Source: Eledone cirrhosa
Lineage: Eukaryota
NCBI GenBank assembly: GCA_964016885.1
Contig: OZ024753.1
Span: 36,766,001-36,830,000, forward strand
DNA length: 64,000 bases
Direction of reading: 5' to 3'
The first letter of the stretch is position 1; every line of letters starts with the position of its first letter. A program made the translations under genes and the position numbers. The notes under the pieces were generated by a model. That model made no database searches. It saw nothing but the letters and a program-made list of their open reading frames with translations, and was not told where the DNA came from. Shown here piece by piece: positions 32,902-62,493 of this stretch.

Positions 32902-33218
32902 GTGATGGTGAGGCTGTGGTGGCTGGTACTGGTAGAAGCGATGCCGGTAGTACTGATATATATATATATATAACAAAGGAATTGTGGTAAGGAACCAGAT
33001 GGAGCATAACGCACCAGAGTACTCAATACTTAGGGTAGTAGAGCTCAAGCCGTTTCGACAAGTGGTTCCTTACCATAATTCCTTTGCTGGTTCCTTACCA
33101 CAATTCCTTTGTATTGAGTACTCTGGTGCGTTATGGTCCATCTGGTTCCTTACCACAATTCTTTGCGTCCAGAAATAGCCGTCGAAACGGCTTGAGCTCT
33201 GCCGTCGGGGTCATACTT

Positions 33219-33310
<92 letters not shown>

Positions 33311-33531
33311 AAATATGTGAAATCCTTGGTACAGTTAGGTATATTTGAAAAAAGGAAAAGAATGACTTCACTTGTAGTTCTAAACAATTTGATTTAATTT
33401 TATAATATTATAATATTATATTATAATATAAAATTAAATCAAATTGTTTAGAATTACAAGTGAAGTCATTCTTTTCCTTTTTTCAAATATATATATATGT
33501 ACATATATAAACCTGTGTATATATATATACA

Positions 33532-35280: not shown

Positions 35281-35878
35281 AGGTCCATCAATAACCATAA
35301 TTATATCAATAAAAGCAATAATTGCATTGATAAGTATAAAGCACAAATATTGGCTAGGTAAGAGATGGGTGAGTGAGAGAGTCAAATAATTGACAGACCC
35401 CATGTATCATTGCTATTTATTTACATCATGTTTCCTACGGGGAGAGAAAACACAAGCAGCATCAGCAGATACAGCAGCATTACCAGCATAGAATGTGTTT
35501 CAACAATTAATAACTCTAATAGTAACAATGATAATGTAATAATTGTTACACAAAATAATATGTTTGTTGTTTGGTAATGAGAATATATTCTATTTTTTTT
35601 TACAAATGTAATGCTTATCAAATATATATCAAATATATTATTATTACATTAGAGACGTCCCTTTACGATCTGAGTTCAAATCCCGCCGAGGTTGACTTTG
35701 CCTTTCATCCTTACGGGGTCGATAAAATAAAGTACCAGTAATGCACTGGGTAATTGCTGGCCTTGTGCCTAAAGTAGAAACAATTATTATTACATTAGAG
35801 AGAAAAGATGCACATATATTCATACACACACACAGATGAATATATTTAGTGTATATCTAATATATATATATCATACAA

Positions 35879-37316: not shown

Positions 37317-37456
37317 TATATATAAAAATATAAATATATAAATATATATATATATAAAGGGGTAGTTGTGGTAAGGAACCAGATGGACCATAACGACTTT
37401 AGTCCAGAAATAGCCGACGAAATGGCTTGAGCTCTGCCGTCGGGTCATACTTTCTC

Positions 37457-37549
<93 letters not shown>

Positions 37550-39963: not shown

Positions 39964-40041
<78 letters not shown>

Positions 40042-40125
40042 TGAAGTGTGGTGAGGAACCAGGTGGACCGTTCAGAAAATGCTGTCGAAACGGCTGGAGA
40101 TCAGCCGTCGGGTCCTGACTCTTTT

Positions 40126-40228
<103 letters not shown>

Positions 40229-40326: not shown

Positions 40327-41327
<1,001 letters not shown>

Positions 41328-42509: not shown

Positions 42510-42820
42510 TTCAAATCCGCCGAGGTTAACTTTGCTTTTCATCCTTACGGGGTCGATGAAATAAAGTACCAGTAATGCATTGGGGTATTTGCTGGCCTTG
42601 TGCCAAAAGTAGTAACATTATTATCATAGGGCGGTGGATTGGCAGTATCGATAGAGGGTCGGACGCCATGCTTTCCAGCATAGTTATGTCCCTTTACGAT
42701 CTGAGTTCAAATCCCGCCGAGGTTGACTTTGCCTTTCATCCTTACGGGGTCGATAAAATAAAGTACCAGTAATGCACTGGGTAATTGCTGGCCTTGTGCT
42801 TAAAGTAGAAACAATTATTA
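42510..42820 (+). mobile_element. Partial + full tandem SINE copies
   Basis: Same family as 17341; the full copy starts ggcggtggattggcag at about 42629. Confidence 0.9.
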
Positions 42821-43048
42821 TCATTATTATTATAAGGCCAAATATTTTCGTTAGATAATCAAATATTTGTCTATAACCTCGTGCGTTAGAGCTAAGCATA
42901 AAGGTATGTATGCATGTATATATAAACACACACACATACACATACACGCGTGCGCGCAAGCACATATATATATACACACACATATACATGTCTGTGTATG
43001 TGTATATGAGCATATGCCTGTATATACCTATTCATGTGTATATATATA

Positions 43049-45221: not shown

Positions 45222-45462
45222 AGAAGTAAAAGTTAAGTGGAAATGTCCAAGAGTAAGAGCACTCGGTCCATAGGATGAGTTTAGTATAAATAATTATTAT
45301 AACAGTGACATAAACAGGTATTCAAGTTTCGTTGGGTTTTGGGCCCCAATTTCTTCAGCCTGTCATGAGAAAAATGGAAAACCATTTTTCTCATGACAGG
45401 CTGAAGATATTGGGGCCCAGAACCCAACGAAACTTGAATACCTGTTTATGTCACTGTTGTAA

Positions 45463-45470
<8 letters not shown>
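45222..45470 (-). mobile_element. Fold-back PLE-like remnant (family F); terminal fragment also at 11021-11068
   Basis: Palindrome centred at about 45379. The terminus agtaaaagttaagtggaaat(g/a)tccaag is shared with 11025. Confidence 0.8.
45396..45445 (+). ncRNA. Type I HHR motif (mirror copy 45314-45363, -)
   Basis: ACAGG-CTGAAGA-ta TTGGG gcccagaa CCCAA c-GAAA-cttgaa-TA-CCTGT. Confidence 0.75.
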
Positions 45471-45497
<27 letters not shown>

Positions 45498-45502
<5 letters not shown>

Positions 45503-45796
45503 GTTTCTACTTTAGGCACAAGGCCAGCAAATACCCAGTGCATTACTGGTACTTTATTTTATCGACTCCGTAAGGATGAAAGGCAAAGTCAACCTCAGCG
45601 GGATTTGAACTCAGATCGTAAAGGGACGTAACTATGCTGGAAAGGGCGGTGGATTGGCAGTATCGGTAGAGGGTCGGACGCCATGCTTTCCAGCATAGTT
45701 ACGTCCCTTTACGATCTGAGTTCAAATCCCGCTGAGGTTGACTTTGCCTTTCATCCTTACGTGGTCGATAAAATAAAGTACCAGTAATGCACTAGG

Positions 45797-45800
<4 letters not shown>
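45498..45800. mobile_element. Head-to-head SINE fold-back inserted in (TA)n
   Basis: 45498-45643 (-, 5'-truncated) abuts 45644-45800 (+, 3'-truncated). Confidence 0.9.
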
Positions 45801-45868
<68 letters not shown>

Positions 45869-46456: not shown

Positions 46457-46851
46457 GAAGATCAAGGTGATGACGGGGAAAGTACTACGGATGATTCTTC
46501 CACCATATTTATTTATCACTAATATAGAGGAAGAATCGTCCATCTTTACCTTTCTCTGGAATAAATCTGCTGTGTTTTGACCTGGAGAGGGAACCGGCTC
46601 CTCCAGAATTTAAAACAATGCCCTAGAAACGTCGTATGTCAGTACAGTGCCCCTGCGACTCCTTCAGGAGTTACGGGACCACACATATCTACATTTAAAT
46701 TAAAACCATCCAGTATAATTATATAATTATATAAAATAATTTCTAAGTCAAGTTATAAATACTATCTCAGTAATGAAATGAGTAATAATTTGAATAAATC
46801 CCTCGAATTTTTTTATTAATTAATTGAAACAGCGAATATTATTACTAATAA

Positions 46852-47405
46852 GGGTGGTGGGTTGGCAGTATCGGTAGAGGGTCGGACGCCATGCTTTCCA
46901 GCATAGTTACGTCCCTTTACGATCCGAGTTCAAATCCCGCCGAGGTTGACTTTGCCTTTCATCCTTACGGGGTCGATAAAATAAAGTACCAGTAATGCAC
47001 TGGGGTAATTGCTGGCCTTGTGCCTAAAGTAGAAACAATTATTACTAATATACGGTGAATTAGCAATATCGGTAGAGGGTCGGACGCCATGCTTTCTAGC
47101 ATAGAGTTACTGCCCTTGCCATTCTGAGTTCAAATCCTGCCGAGGTTAACTCTGCCTTTCATCCTTACTGGGTCGCTAAAATTAAGTACCAGTCATGCAC
47201 TGGGGTCGATTTAATCGACTTTCCCGTCCCCAAAATTGCTGGCCTTGTGCCTATATGAGAAACTATTATAAGTCTCTTTACGGTTTGAGTTCAAATCCCG
47301 TCGAGGTTGACTTTGCCTTTCATCGTTACTGGGTCTATAAAATAAAGTACCAGTAATGTACTGGGTTATTGCTGGCCTTGTGCCAAAAGTAGAAACAATT
47401 ATTAC
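46852..47405 (+). mobile_element. Tandem SINE cluster (three units)
   Basis: Same family as 17341; units start at about 46852, 47052 and 47271. Confidence 0.9.
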
Positions 47406-50936: not shown

Positions 50937-50992
50937 TTATATATATATATATTTATTTATATATATATGTATAAATATATATAAATATATAT

Positions 50993-51826
50993 ATACAGAG
51001 AATTAGTATATCTACCAACATATGCGTACAGATGTACACTAATGCTAGCAAATACATAAGTTGTGTCATAGTACCTAGGTGGTTCAATGCAGGAGGATGC
51101 AGAACAATAATATGAAAGACGTAAAATAAGAAAATTTTTTAAAATATTAAAAATTAACTTACTAAAATTTTCACTCCAACTAATTAGTTTCTGTAATGGG
51201 ATAAAGATAGTTACGTAATATAACCATCGAGAATTCATTACGTCATTAGGGAGTCTATTCTCAGCTAAGTCTCCAGGCAATGCGCGGACACTAGGGACTC
51301 ATATAAAAATAATAATAATAATTCGGTGGAAGGAACAGCTAGCGGGGACTGGATTCCATGCACTGAAAAAGTTCGCTGCCTCTGGTCAAATGGCAGATTC
51401 TAAAGAATCAATCACGTGACACTGAGGCTAGTCGGAAGGAGTGGGTTGGTAAGATGACAGAAGCCTACTACCACACCAATGAATTAGTAGCGGATTTGGC
51501 AGGTTTGCTCAACAAATAAATAATTTGGAGATAAATACAGAGAATTAGTATATCTACCAACATATGCGTACAGGTGTACACTAATGCTAGCAAATACATA
51601 AGTTATGTCATAGTAATTATTATTATTTTTATATGAGTCCCTAGTGTCCGCGCATTGCCTGGAGACTTAGCTGAGAATAGACTCCCTGATGACGTAATGA
51701 ATTCTCGATGGTTATATTTACGTAACTATCTTTATCCCATTACAGAAACTAATTAGTTGGAGTGAAAATTTTAGTAAGTTAATTTTTCATTTTTTTTTTT
51801 ATTTTCTTATTTTACGTCTTTCATAA
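50993..51826 (-). mobile_element. Non-coding PLE/retrozyme-like element (family G): 542-bp unit + partial tandem repeat + inverted arm
   Basis: Direct repeat 50993-51073 / 51535-51615; inverted arms about 51112-51322 / 51616-51826. A collapsed remnant lies at 61861-61930. Confidence 0.8.
51681..51763 (+). ncRNA. Type I HHR motif (mirror copy 51173-51254 has mutated core CTAATGA)
   Basis: ACTCC-CTGATGA-c GTAATG...CATTAC a-GAAA-CTAATTAG-TT-GGAGT; stem III ACTAATTAGT is palindromic. Confidence 0.8.
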
Positions 51827-54195: not shown

Positions 54196-54237
<42 letters not shown>

Positions 54238-54242
<5 letters not shown>

Positions 54243-54630
54243 GAAAACGAAAAATCAGTGATGCATCTGAACTCAATTTATTGTGTTACAATTGTTTCGC
54301 CGGCGGACTGCTCGAGACGCGATCATTGTGTGGATCTGTCTGATTCTGGACCCGCAGGTTCGACGGACACGTCTAATGATTTCTCTCGTGAGAGAATATG
54401 GTCCGAAATCATTAGACGTGTCCGTCGAACCTGCGGGTCCAGAATCAGACAGATCCACACAATGATCGCGTCTCGAGCAGTCCGCCGGCGAAACAATTGT
54501 AACACACAGTAAATTGAGTTCACATGCATCACTGATTTTTCGTTTTCTATTCTATCATACTATGCTCTGTAAGAGCATAGAGTGCTCAACCGGCATACCG
54601 CCTATGGAAGCATCTTAGCTACCATCAGAC
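54238..54630 (+). mobile_element. GC-rich fold-back PLE-like remnant (family H)
   Basis: Arms about 54238-54383 / 54405-54553. HHR 3' half GAAA-CAATTG-TA; 3' hairpin atgctct gta agagcat followed by agagtgctc. Confidence 0.7.
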
Positions 54631-54637
54631 ACACACC

Positions 54638-54704
<67 letters not shown>

Positions 54705-54707
<3 letters not shown>

Positions 54708-55030
54708 ATATAGAAAAGACTGGAACTGTTTCACTCGGGAGAAATCATAAGGAAGCTTCCTGATGATTTCTCCCGAATGAAATAGTCCTAGTCCTGTAGA
54801 AGCTTTTTCTATATTAAATATTTATGCTCTGCTTTGTATTGAGTTGCTTACTTACTGTGGTGACCCCCGATTGAACGCGGGATAAACTTATATATATATA
54901 TATATAAGTTATTCCGGGTTGAATTGGAGGTAACCACAGTAAGTAAAGTACTCAATACATAGCAGAGTATAAAGTTTTAATATAGAAGAGCTTCTACAGG
55001 ACTAGAACTGTTTCATTCATGAGAAATCAT
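54705..55030. mobile_element. Two tail-to-tail copies of PLE-like family C (54705-54890 and 54905-55030)
   Basis: Homologous to 61941-62135. HHR at 54753-54805 (+): AAGCTTC-CTGATGA-tttctcccgaat-GAAA-TAG tcctagtc CTG-TA-GAAGCTT. Confidence 0.8.
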
Positions 55031-55064
55031 CATATATGCATATATATATATATATATATATATA

Positions 55065-55315
55065 TGGAGGAAGTTATAGTTCACTTGAAGCATTGTGTAA
55101 TGAGGTATAAACGTTTGTATATGTATAATAAAGCCAAAACAATGCACGTATGGACATAGAATAAAGAATGCAAATGCAAAAGATATTTACCTTAGATTTA
55201 TTTAAATAAATCTAAGGTAAAAGACTAATTGTCAACAATATCTTTTGCATTTGCATTCTTTATTCTATGTCCATACCTGCATTGTTTTGGCTTTATTATA
55301 CATATACAAACGTAT
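55065..55315. mobile_element. Fold-back element in (TA)n
   Basis: Arms about 55111-55186 / 55237-55312, plus an inner perfect palindrome tttaccttagatttatttaaataaatctaaggtaaa. Confidence 0.65.
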
Positions 55316-55373
55316 ATATATATACGCTAAATGCTGATATTGGTTAGATTATCTATATTAGTAATTTTGGGCA

Positions 55374-58746: not shown

Positions 58747-58978
58747 GTACTTTTTTATGGACCACTCTCTCTATATATTTATATATATATTTATACATAC
58801 ACACACAGATATATATTTACATTTATATATATATTTATATATATATATATATATACACACACACATTTCTATATACATTTCTATATACATTTATATATAC
58901 TTATATATATATACATATATATACATTTATATATGTATATATATACATATATATATATAAATGCATATATAAATATAT

Positions 58979-59031
<53 letters not shown>

Positions 59032-59888
59032 AATATACAGTATTTTCCGTTGTGTTGTAATATAAATATTACACATAGTAGATTATCAGCTCACGTAGAG
59101 TTTGCTCGACGGTTCCAGTTGTAGTTCCAAAAGTAATCCGGAGAAAAATAGAAAGATTTGAATGGATACAGTTTAGTTGAAAGGAATTTATTGACACGTG
59201 TTTCTATAACAGTTACATAACCTAAAACAGCTATCTACAAACTTTTAGTTATGCAGACATTCAATATTTCAATGTTATTATTTACTGTCATTTCATCAGA
59301 ATAATATTACTGAGGACCTATTTAGTTTTTATAGAGAATATTAGGAGGAAGGGGTGAAGTTGTTAGAAGAATAGTTGAAGGAGTGGTTTTTCGATAGCAG
59401 TGAGAATTCTTGGTGGCAGTGAGTAATTAGATTCCCATCTGTTGTTTTGACATTTTTTATAGAATATATTATTGGTTATTTTTCTAAATCTATAGAAGGA
59501 TTAGAGATAGTAAAGATATGCGTGGTTGGTTTTGTGTTTGCACTTAACATTCAGACTTAAATTTTTCTTTCAAGTGTACGTATTCTTTCACCCACGCATT
59601 CACACACAAATATATTTGCACACCTCTACAAAATACATATACTCACAATTCACATATTCATACTTACATATATATACACATGCATACACATATATATACA
59701 CACATGTATTCATGTACATACATACGCGCTCATGTGTATACATTTTCATACTCAACTTATCTTTATATATACACACGTATAGACACACACATATATACAT
59801 ACATACTCTAGTCCATGTGTACACACATACACATACATACACATCCATATACACATACATACATACACATATATATATACATACATAC

Positions 59889-59935
<47 letters not shown>

Positions 59936-59936
59936 C

Positions 59937-59989
<53 letters not shown>

Positions 59990-60260
59990 AGCACTTTAAT
60001 ACATGAATACACTTACATCTAACTATACACATCAAACATATATATATATATTTACTTATTTATATACATTTTCACATATATATACATACTTATGGACGTT
60101 TTTAGACACATTCATTATCGCATATTTGTACCTATTCTCATCAGCATATCTTTTCATTATTAGTATGGTAATTTAAGGTTATTAATATATGTTGAGAAGA
60201 AATTGTTTTTATATTTTTCTAACTAGATTAAGGTTTATATAGTTGGGGGATGTCCCTCTT

Positions 60261-60480
60261 TTATGTAATATTCGGCTTGTAGTGGGAAAAAAGGGTTTTA
60301 GTTCTGTGACGGCAGAATAATGTTCGTTCAATTCTGTTATTCAGCAGTTTCTTCTTGTGTGTGATTATGTAATAAATCTCAAGATTACACAATTTGCAGA
60401 AATTTTGGCTCCTGGAAAAGCTTTGGGTTTTAGCTAATTTTTCCCATTTTAGGGTAAACTTTTGATTGCTATCTCTGAGC
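60261..60480 (-). pseudogene. C-terminal fragment of a PLE GIY-YIG endonuclease
   Basis: LRDSNQKFTLKWEKLAKTQSFSRSQNFCKLCNLEIYYIITHKKKLLNNRIERTLFCRHRTKTLF matches the PLE pattern kW.il.ka......C.LC..Ek..I.....LLN.R.E....CRH (recalled, not searched). Confidence 0.8.
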
Positions 60481-60600
60481 GTGTCTAAAAACGTCCATAA
60501 GTATGTATATATATGTGAAAATGTATATAAATAAGTAAATATATATATATATGTTTGATGTGTATAGTTAGATGTAAGTGTATTCATGTATTAAAGTGCT

Positions 60601-60653
<53 letters not shown>

Positions 60654-60654
60654 G

Positions 60655-60701
<47 letters not shown>

Positions 60702-61285
60702 GTATGTATGTATATATATATGTGTATGTATGTATGTGTATATGGATGTGTATGTATGTGTATGTGTGTACACATGGACTAGAGTATGTATGTATATATG
60801 TGTGTGTCTATACGTGTGTATATATAAAGATAAGTTGAGTATGAAAATGTATACACATGAGCGCGTATGTATGTACATGAATACATGTGTGTATATATAT
60901 GTGTATGCATGTGTATATATATGTAAGTATGAATATGTGAATTGTGAGTATATGTATTTTGTAGAGGTGTGCAAATATATTTGTGTGTGAATGCGTGGGT
61001 GAAAGAATACGTACACTTGAAAGAAAAATTTAAGTCTGAATGTTAAGTGCAAACACAAAACCAACCACGCATATCTTTACTATCTCTAATCCTTCTATAG
61101 ATTTAGAAAAATAACCAATAATATATTCTATAAAAAATGTCAAAACAACAGATGGGAATCTAATTACTCACTGCCACCAAGAATTCTCACTGCTATCGAA
61201 AAACCACTCCTTCAACTATTCTTCTAACAACTTCACCCCTTCCTCCTAATATTCTCTATAAAAACTAAATAGGTCCTCAGTAATA

Positions 61286-61402
61286 TTATTCTGATGAAAT
61301 GACAGTAAATAATAACATTGAAATATTGAATGTCTGCATAACTAAAAGTTTGTAGATAGCTGTTTTAGGTTATGTAACTGTTATAGAAACACGTGTCAAT
61401 AA
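61286..61402 (+). ncRNA. Type I HHR motif with long stem II (mirror/sense copy 59188-59304, -)
   Basis: TTATT-CTGATGA-a ATGACAGT...ACTGTTAT a-GAAA-CACGTG-TC-AATAA; stem III ACACGTGT is palindromic and the cleavage triplet is GUC. Confidence 0.8.
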
Positions 61403-61439
61403 ATTCCTTTCAACTAAACTGTATCCATTCAAATCTTTC

Positions 61440-61501
<62 letters not shown>

Positions 61502-61509
61502 TATATATA

Positions 61510-61600
<91 letters not shown>

Positions 61601-61713
61601 ATATATTTATATATGCATTTATATATATATATGTATATATATACATATATAAATGTATATATATGTATATATATATAAGTATATAGAAATGTATATAGAA
61701 ATGTATATAGAAA

Positions 61714-61862
<149 letters not shown>

Positions 61863-61940
61863 AATTAGTATATCTACCAACATATATATAAGTTAAATTT
61901 TATAATTTTTTTATTTTACGTCTTTCATATATATATATAT

Positions 61941-62129
61941 ATTCCGGATGCAATCGGGGGTAACCACAGTAAGTAAGGTACTCAATACAAATAGCAGAGT
62001 ATAAATGTTTTAATATAGAAAAGCTTCTACAGGACTAGAACTGTTTCATTCGTGAGAAATCATCAGGAAGCGCTTCCTGATGATTTCTCACGTATGAAAC
62101 AGTTCTAGTCCTTTAGAAGCTGTTCTATA

Positions 62130-62135
<6 letters not shown>
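61941..62135 (-). mobile_element. Fold-back PLE-like remnant (family C) with back-to-back HHRs at 62023-62071 (-) and 62072-62120 (+)
   Basis: Minus copy GCTTC-CTGATGA-tttctcacgaat-GAAA-CAG ttctagtc CTG-TA-GAAGC; the symmetry axis lies at 62071/62072. Confidence 0.85.
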
Positions 62136-62228
<93 letters not shown>

Positions 62229-62400
62229 CGAAGGAAATGTGGTAAGGAACCAGGTGGACCATAACGCACCAAAGTACTCAATACTTAGGGTAGTAGAGTG
62301 GGTAATAGGAACGAGTAGGACCCCGACGGCTGAGCTCAAGCTGAGTCCAGAATTAGCCATCGAAACGGCTTGAGCTCAGCCGTCGGGGTCCTACTCGTTG

Positions 62401-62493
<93 letters not shown>

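Follow-up and report, generated by a model that had tools for sequence, protein, structure and literature searches.

What kind of mobile element leaves the end of a gene between two mirror-image arms, and by what process do the arms arise? The question is raised by a 2.4-kb unit in a stretch of 64,000 nucleotides of Eledone cirrhosa DNA (contig OZ024753.1 of assembly GCA_964016885.1), called here the window, which as a whole is AT-rich and microsatellite-rich. The unit contains inverted arms, the end of a Hydra-type GIY-YIG endonuclease (EN) gene followed by a stop codon, a hammerhead ribozyme motif in the same sense, a tail at one end only, and no reverse transcriptase (RT). An earlier note, made from the letters alone, had linked it to an autonomous, probably still active Penelope-like element (PLE), likely of the Naiad clade. 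The reading favoured here, with a probability of roughly 0.6, is that the unit is the product of a recent PLE retrotransposition and consists of the last 72 codons of a Hydra-clade open reading frame (ORF), about 1.2 kb of downstream DNA with a hammerhead, and an inverted, shorter copy.

The two arms (59148-60109, minus strand, and 60481-61442, plus strand) are exact reverse complements at 962 of 962 bases, and all six dinucleotide runs of at least five units have equal lengths in both, just as the earlier note described them. A repeat search stretches the arms to 967 nt once two mismatches are admitted. The spacer between them (60110-60480, minus strand; 371 bp) is unique to the longer copy and has no second copy within the window; it holds the ORF end and about 150 nt of 3' untranslated region. 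The left arm is the 3' part of this longer, sense-strand copy, and the right arm is the inverted, shorter, 5'-truncated copy. Inside both arms is a TA/CA-rich, microsatellite-like stretch (59600-60090 in the left arm, minus strand), 79% of which consists of the dinucleotides TA, AT, CA and AC, versus 31% in 59040-59599. The left copy exceeds the right by 108-110 nt, this being an extra 3' tail (59038/59040-59147, minus strand) that ends 153-155 nt beyond the hammerhead cleavage site, whereas the right arm ends 45 nt beyond its own. A pLTR, direct or inverted, with a one-sided tail is a feature of EN-containing PLEs, found here as 962-bp inverted arms and a 108-110-nt tail at one end. The tail region (59040-59150, minus strand) is bounded by an 8-bp inverted repeat, and both copy ends lie at the base of one predicted stem; the closed multibranch fold predicted for the tail is weak (z = -1.8, with 8 of 200 shuffles as stable).

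The coding part of the spacer identifies the element. On the minus strand, 60479-60261 translates into 72 amino acids and a stop codon (60261..60479), which lies 14 codons beyond the CxH motif. The minus-strand coding spacer and the hammerhead in sense with it were already in the earlier note, as was the motif in the form W..LAK..CKLC..E....LLN.R.E....CRH, which reads here W..LAK..CKLC.LE...LLNNRIE....CRH; the length of 73 amino acids given there is corrected to 72 plus the stop. An exhaustive phmmer search with the fragment returns 149 proteins at E<=0.001 (best 4.7e-8), 126 of which carry the pattern CxxC..E..LN..E..CxH, while CxxC before YIG occurs in 0 of the 149. In an alignment of the fragment with 29 relatives, W12, C28, L30, C31, E34, I38, L46, E51, C56 and H58 are invariant, and N47 is conserved in at least 90% of the 30 sequences. 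One repeat protein among the 149 matches (P0010) was excluded from a later C-terminal profile. The search with the alignment for full-length relatives was limited to proteins of 661-2000 amino acids. It retrieved 26 RT+EN proteins of 696-725 amino acids, all of them with DKT near the N-terminus and with CxxC/CxH at the extreme C-terminus (26/26 for each); the RT motif [YF]RDD is present in 13.

A hidden Markov model (HMM) of these 26 proteins matches one of the 1851 stop-to-stop segments of the window, namely the spacer, at model positions 625-700 of 702 (E=6.6e-10), and the next-best segment scores E=0.66. Since the spacer alone is matched, there is no RT match in any frame of the 64-kb window. 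An hhalign comparison agrees, with a probability of 94% (E=9e-8). The structure predicted for one relative (P0020; predicted local distance difference test score 87.5) has I-TevI as its top neighbour in a wide structural search (Z 9.7, root-mean-square deviation 2.3, 90 residues aligned), and T4 EndoII (Z 8.0) and the GIY-YIG domain of UvrC (Z 6.5) are also near the top. Some results weigh on the other side. Pfam assigns 0 families to the 72-residue fragment, and its GIY-YIG family reaches the relatives at sub-threshold scores only, in four of the 20 short proteins and one of the seven full-length ones. Foldseek with the P0020 model gives no match at E<=0.001 (I-TevI ranks third, E=0.9). The strict RWK motif occurs in 2 of the 26 long relatives and the strict linker pattern (CxCX5C) in 12. 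Among longer proteins, a word-index search with just the fragment as query yields seven candidates, none of them significant. One metagenome locus among 313 candidates for the fragment query (L001) was set aside as an 8-residue chance match on a GC-rich contig of bacterial type.

The 72 residues form the C-terminal end of a GIY-YIG domain of PLE type, with the GIY-YIG core cut off, which bears out the earlier suggestion: 149 relatives share the fragment, and it corresponds to the C-terminus of RT+EN proteins of about 700 amino acids. The description of the PLE as autonomous and probably still active is unsupported, because this copy has neither an RT nor a GIY-YIG core. The copy is itself unable to move autonomously and would need an intact copy elsewhere.

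To which clade does the fragment belong? According to PMC8557442 (section 11 and Fig. S7), members of the Hydra clade have hammerheads, (TA)n targets, DKT, and CxxC and CxH around a conserved E and N. The paper calls the CxxC/CxH motifs potentially Hydra-specific; in its Fig. S7 the cysteines appear in the Hydra rows and in none of the Penelope/Poseidon, Nematis and Neptune rows. The element agrees in every respect that can be assessed on a fragment. The EN is at the C-terminus (the stop follows CxH by 14 codons, and the HMM match ends at 700 of 702), all 30 aligned sequences share C28, C31, E34, C56 and H58, a canonical type I hammerhead follows the ORF in sense (it may belong to a second module, discussed below), and (TA)n DNA is found on both flanks. 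The long relatives of the fragment add DKT and a length of about 700 amino acids. Naiads, as described in the same source, have the EN N-terminal to the RT, carry a CCHH motif and lack canonical hammerheads. Here a stop codon and non-coding DNA follow the EN, and the canonical motif is present in sense, so the element has neither of the assessable Naiad-specific features. Other marks of the two clades fall in regions that this copy lacks: DKT, RWK, a CxCX5C linker and the absence of CCHH for Hydra, and CCHH, a CxC domain, DKA and IFD for Naiad.

The notion that this is a copy of an autonomous, active Naiad, which also drives the short hairpins of the window, is therefore extremely improbable. 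It has in its favour that a (TA)n target, an inverted copy and a tail are Naiad features too, inverted or tandem insertions among them, and that Naiads are listed for Octopus species (PMC8557442). Against it stand the stop where an RT should follow the EN, the canonical hammerhead, the Hydra-type motifs in the fragment and in 26 of 26 long relatives, and the lack of similarity to the hairpins. The Naiad call is rejected on these grounds: a stop rather than an RT after the EN, a hammerhead, and CxxC/CxH cysteines of Hydra type.

Within the Hydra clade the copy has its own peculiarities. Compared with the published descriptions, it keeps no more than the last 72 codons, its intact hammerhead lies 962 nt past the stop behind a microsatellite stretch and has a stem II of about 87 nt, the tail measures about 109 nt, and a decayed hammerhead-like motif sits at the usual distance. 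Penelope-13_HM, a Hydra-clade element for which File S1 of PMC8557442 gives an inverted 5' copy of 966 nt, differs in its hammerhead sequence and in being a 3-kb consensus as opposed to a 2.4-kb single copy. Hydra-1_Obim of Octopus bimaculoides belongs to the same clade and has an EN end with CKLC and LN.R.; by-eye comparison with the published rows shows differences in the C-terminus of the EN, in the core and the stems of the hammerhead, and at the 5' end. Membership in the Hydra-1_Obim family was ruled out by the non-matching EN C-terminus and hammerhead. Three short motifs of the element are absent from the supplement text of PMC8557442 in a motif search. Taken together, these comparisons suggest a Hydra-clade family that is absent from the published Hydra hammerhead and EN rows compared.

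The hammerheads bear on how the copied RNA was composed. The intact motif is of type I and runs from 59304 to 59188 on the minus strand (core at 59299, cleavage nucleotide at 59193), in sense with the ORF, and its mirror image occupies 61286-61402 on the plus strand (core at 61291, cleavage nucleotide at 61397). It comprises a 5-bp stem I, a CUGAUGA core, the stem II of about 87 nt, a palindromic stem III and a GUC cleavage site; palindromic stem III has been linked to dimeric cleavage (PMC4209133). A descriptor scan finds four hammerhead matches in the window versus two in total in 30 shuffled windows. The constrained active fold reaches -19.6 kcal/mol, stem II forms in the free minimum-free-energy structure, and the fold of stem II has z = -1.8. 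Two details weigh on the other side: the active fold lies 4.6 kcal/mol above the free minimum, and the closing pair of stem II is A-U and not the usual G-C. Rfam misses the hammerheads, with 0 matches at gathering thresholds; the 93 matches at E<=10 are microsatellite-driven and include no hammerhead family.

A decayed hammerhead-like motif lies nearer to the gene (60148-60091, minus strand), with a 4-bp stem I, CUGAUGA at 60144, an 8-bp stem II and GUC at 60095, and with AAAAC where GAAAC is needed; it was recovered by a relaxed scan and a constrained fold. The relaxed scan gives three matches in the window and 0 in 40 shuffles, under criteria that were chosen after the motif had been seen. 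This motif is 117 nt past the EN stop, as opposed to 962 nt for the intact hammerhead, and by-eye counts on two published Hydra consensus sequences place the hammerhead about 150 and about 250 nt after the stop (PMC8557442). Downstream of the decayed motif follow about 495 nt of TA/CA-rich DNA and then a 560-nt module with the intact hammerhead. Between the two 3' modules there is no significant likeness, as 198 of 500 shuffles reach an equally good score. In 59150-59600 a further decayed ORF end had been suspected, but it was dismissed, its profile match having an independent E-value of 19. Given the decayed motif at 117 nt, the intact one at 962 nt and the unlike 3' modules, we lean slightly towards a composite donor RNA, in which the 3' end of a Hydra element, together with the decayed hammerhead belonging to it, would be followed by microsatellite DNA and then by a second, intact hammerhead-plus-tail module.

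The flanks show where the unit landed and how recently. They form an imperfect AT palindrome centred near 61505, and in a self-BLAST comparison 58772-60109 aligns with 61807-60481. The left flank (58772-59037) is an interrupted (TA)n microsatellite that includes the left palindrome half and the target site; the right flank (61456-61807) includes the palindrome centre and the right half. The palindrome matches at 130 of 131 positions, with one substitution and differing tract lengths besides. A candidate target-site duplication of 13-16 bp, of low complexity, is present on the plus strand at 59022-59037 and again at 61440-61455, where its first 3 nt are shared with the arm end. When the insertion and one copy of the duplication are removed, five AAA interruptions stand on one side of the palindrome centre and five TTT interruptions on the other. 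These observations fit an insertion into an older palindrome with a candidate duplication of 13-16 bp, although they are suggestive only. Continued copying of the right arm into the flank, with the tail skipped, was considered and rejected, as the first two interruptions to the right of the arm keep the orientation of the left flank. Because there are 0 differences between the arms in 962 positions (95% upper bound 0.31%), beside one in 131 plus tract-length differences in the flank palindrome, the insertion is likely to be recent, in keeping with the earlier view of its age.

The same perfect identity, microsatellite lengths included, would be expected of an artefact, in which a fold-back chimeric read or a mis-join made the right arm, or polishing erased real differences between older arms. 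The surroundings are very repetitive, the flank is inverted-duplicated as well, and the structure is known from the assembly alone. A fold-back, however, would be symmetric, and here there are a unique 371-bp spacer, a one-sided tail and a direct duplication; the flank palindrome carries its substitution and its unequal tracts; and the window holds several diverged hairpins (76-96% identical) of like build. The asymmetric ends, the unique spacer, the 13-16-bp candidate duplication and the flank interruptions in left orientation disfavour an artefact, which is accordingly judged unlikely. Rather less probable still is an inverted repeat formed once the element was in place, whether through break-induced fold-back repair or through recombination between two nearby, oppositely oriented copies of the family with subsequent gene conversion. 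AT palindromes devoid of PLE marks do exist in the window (e.g., 19453-19702 and 28551-29110), yet both outer ends of the unit lie just past the hammerhead and point outward like primed 3' ends, and a single target duplication brackets the whole.

How, then, could one retrotransposition event produce two opposed copies? An RT-EN protein of a PLE, supplied from elsewhere, would cut the TA tract with nicks in the two strands set 13-16 nt apart. From each 3'-OH a cDNA would then be primed on the element RNA, the two start sites lying about 154 nt and 45 nt beyond the hammerhead site. This difference between the start sites would be the one-sided tail. Both cDNAs would stop early, one inside the EN gene (60480) and the other in the stem of the decayed hammerhead (60109), and their 3' ends would join head-to-head through an imperfect microhomology of 5-7 nt, repair leaving the target duplication. 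The inversion junction at 60109 does lie inside the 3' strand of stem II of the decayed motif.

Parts of this scheme have precedents. Inverted 5'-truncated copies and one-sided tails are described PLE features, and the origin of the inverted repeats and tails is stated to be open (PMC8557442). For a Poseidon PLE, PMC11167929 reports that in vitro the protein both cleaves and extends the two strands of AT-rich DNA, that reverse transcription starts at two internal sites bounding the genomic tail, that a dimer is predicted and that hammerhead cleavage is not needed in vitro. This Poseidon element (PAc, of the green anole) resembles the present one in its AT-rich target, its two start sites bounding a tail, a hammerhead upstream of them and, by analogy, the cutting and extension of both strands; it differs in belonging to another clade, in an ORF start within the hammerhead and in its short tail (PMC11167929). 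Non-LTR (long terminal repeat) retrozymes, according to the abstract of bioRxiv 10.64898/2026.07.22.740005, are likewise hammerhead-bearing and non-autonomous, with mobilisation by PLEs proposed; they are described as tandem arrays, whereas the present unit pairs two inverted copies head-to-head and keeps a remnant of an ORF. Two families of short hairpins in the window, A and B, end at recurrent positions: 83 and 83, or 2, 3 and 3, nt past an anchor in family B, and 81, 84 and 86, or 13, nt in family A. This clustered two-end pattern fits two fixed start sites.

The main rival is a single priming of the same element, in which the cDNA snaps back by a template switch at an upstream hairpin and recopies its own 3' part as the inverted arm, synthesis then stopping about 109 nt short and joining the target through a TAT microhomology. 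Such a process predicts perfect identity of the arms, the predicted stem that holds the junction has a near-complementary extension of 5 nt, TAT is common to the right end and the target, and in several short hairpins of the window the centre lies within a hammerhead stem or a little upstream of one. Yet the left cDNA continues for 371 nt past the junction before turning, the right flank does not carry on the adjacent left flank in inverted form, and the two-end patterns of families A and B, together with the published two-site initiation, fit two primings. We regard snap-back of a single cDNA as a serious contender but, on balance, rather improbable.

Several points weigh against priming on both strands as set out above. 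The candidate duplication lies in low-complexity DNA, where shifted junctions give other, longer matches. The arms and junctions are those of the assembly, where the identity of inverted arms can be a product of polishing. Cutting and extension of both strands was established biochemically for the Poseidon clade and not for Hydra. The 45-nt short end is that of a single copy, from which a preferred start is not inferable, and in families A and B the short ends also fall at TA-like microhomology. Finally, tails usually measure 30-40 nt, less than the approximately 109 nt found here.

Several other head-to-head, hammerhead-bearing hairpins lie in TA tracts of the window and have the same build as the element. 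The claim that this copy links the non-coding hairpins to a PLE does not hold at the level of sequence, architecture being all that is shared: between the element and the rest of the window there is no BLASTN match at E<=0.01, and against ten hairpin regions there is one 16-nt match (E=0.097). A sequence link to the short hairpins is rejected on this basis. Family A (61927-62133 and 54694-55032) has outward-facing hammerhead cores (CTGATGAT...TGAAACAGTT) in TA tracts, with one arm about 70 nt longer than the other and no similarity to the element at 59-61 kb; the spacing CTGATGAT...TGAA is Hydra-like, as in many of the Hydra rows published in PMC8557442. Family B (62228-62404, 30630-30830, 32960-33242, 37344-37476 and 40036-40146) is centred on a hammerhead-like stem upstream of GAAAC, and its two recurrent outer ends are about 80 nt apart. 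A PLE-like complex at 50989-51825 has inverted arms of about 210 bp (96% identical), a full hammerhead (51686-51758) and a tail at one end only, of which a second copy lies internally (51531-51615); short pieces of its family recur at 61862-61942. Further diverged hairpins, with 76-93% arm identity, are found at 45285-45475, 12490-12890, 28190-28470, 54234-54556, 55106-55318 and 40505-40642; some carry CTGAnGA cores, and those at 12490-12890 and 28190-28470 are mutually related. At 19453-19702, 28551-29110 and 33329-33502, inverted duplications of 63-102 bp of complex DNA surround a central (TA)n tract; no hammerhead was seen in them, and their appearance is fold-back-like. A dispersed repeat of about 200-350 bp, 85-98% alike between copies, occurs many times, at 17202-17940, 31769-31989, 35655-35792, 42510-42825, 45497-45801 and 46835-47400 and includes an inverted pair at 45529-45801; it presumably resembles an octopus short interspersed element.

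Relatives of the element are also present in public sequencing data. At least half of the 31-mers sampled from 59040-60480 are held by 6 of the 24 public runs listed (3 organism labels, 2 studies), and at least 0.22 of the sampled 31-mers of the element by 12 of the 24 (9 labels, 8 studies). About 12% of the element's 31-mers are of low complexity, too few to explain the high shares. Shares of 0.79-0.22 would correspond to 0.8-4.8% divergence if divergence were their sole cause; the best-holding run may be the source sample, and the presence of 31-mers says nothing about the linkage of parts. RNA-type runs hold 0.04-0.07 of the element's 31-mers, which bears neither way on expression. It is likely, as judged by shared words of sequence, that close relatives of the element exist in several species, by shared ancestry or by transfer. 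A literature search that left most subscription papers outside its scope found no paper on this Hydra-clade family or on twin priming as the source of PLE inversions.

The unit is thus likely to be a recent, 5'-truncated, non-autonomous Hydra-clade copy in an inverted arrangement that has already been described and, taken alone, it is one more truncated PLE copy of described shape. Its wider interest is that it marks a Hydra-clade family not found in the published rows compared, through a copy young enough for identical arms. Only a Poseidon element has been studied in vitro (PMC11167929), and the undecayed junctions, tail and candidate duplication of the present copy give testable positions for starting, stopping and joining. 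A broader proposal can be put forward only tentatively, and we hold it to be doubtful. The intact hammerhead-plus-tail may serve as a portable signal for priming, which takes along about 1 kb of any DNA upstream (in this case microsatellite and a dead Hydra end) and is copied from both (TA)n strands by a dimeric PLE enzyme, with hammerhead stems as the stall points at which cDNAs join. If this were true, one process would account for the many hammerhead-bearing hairpins in the window, and PLEs would be a main source of palindromes and of shuffled microsatellite DNA in this genome.

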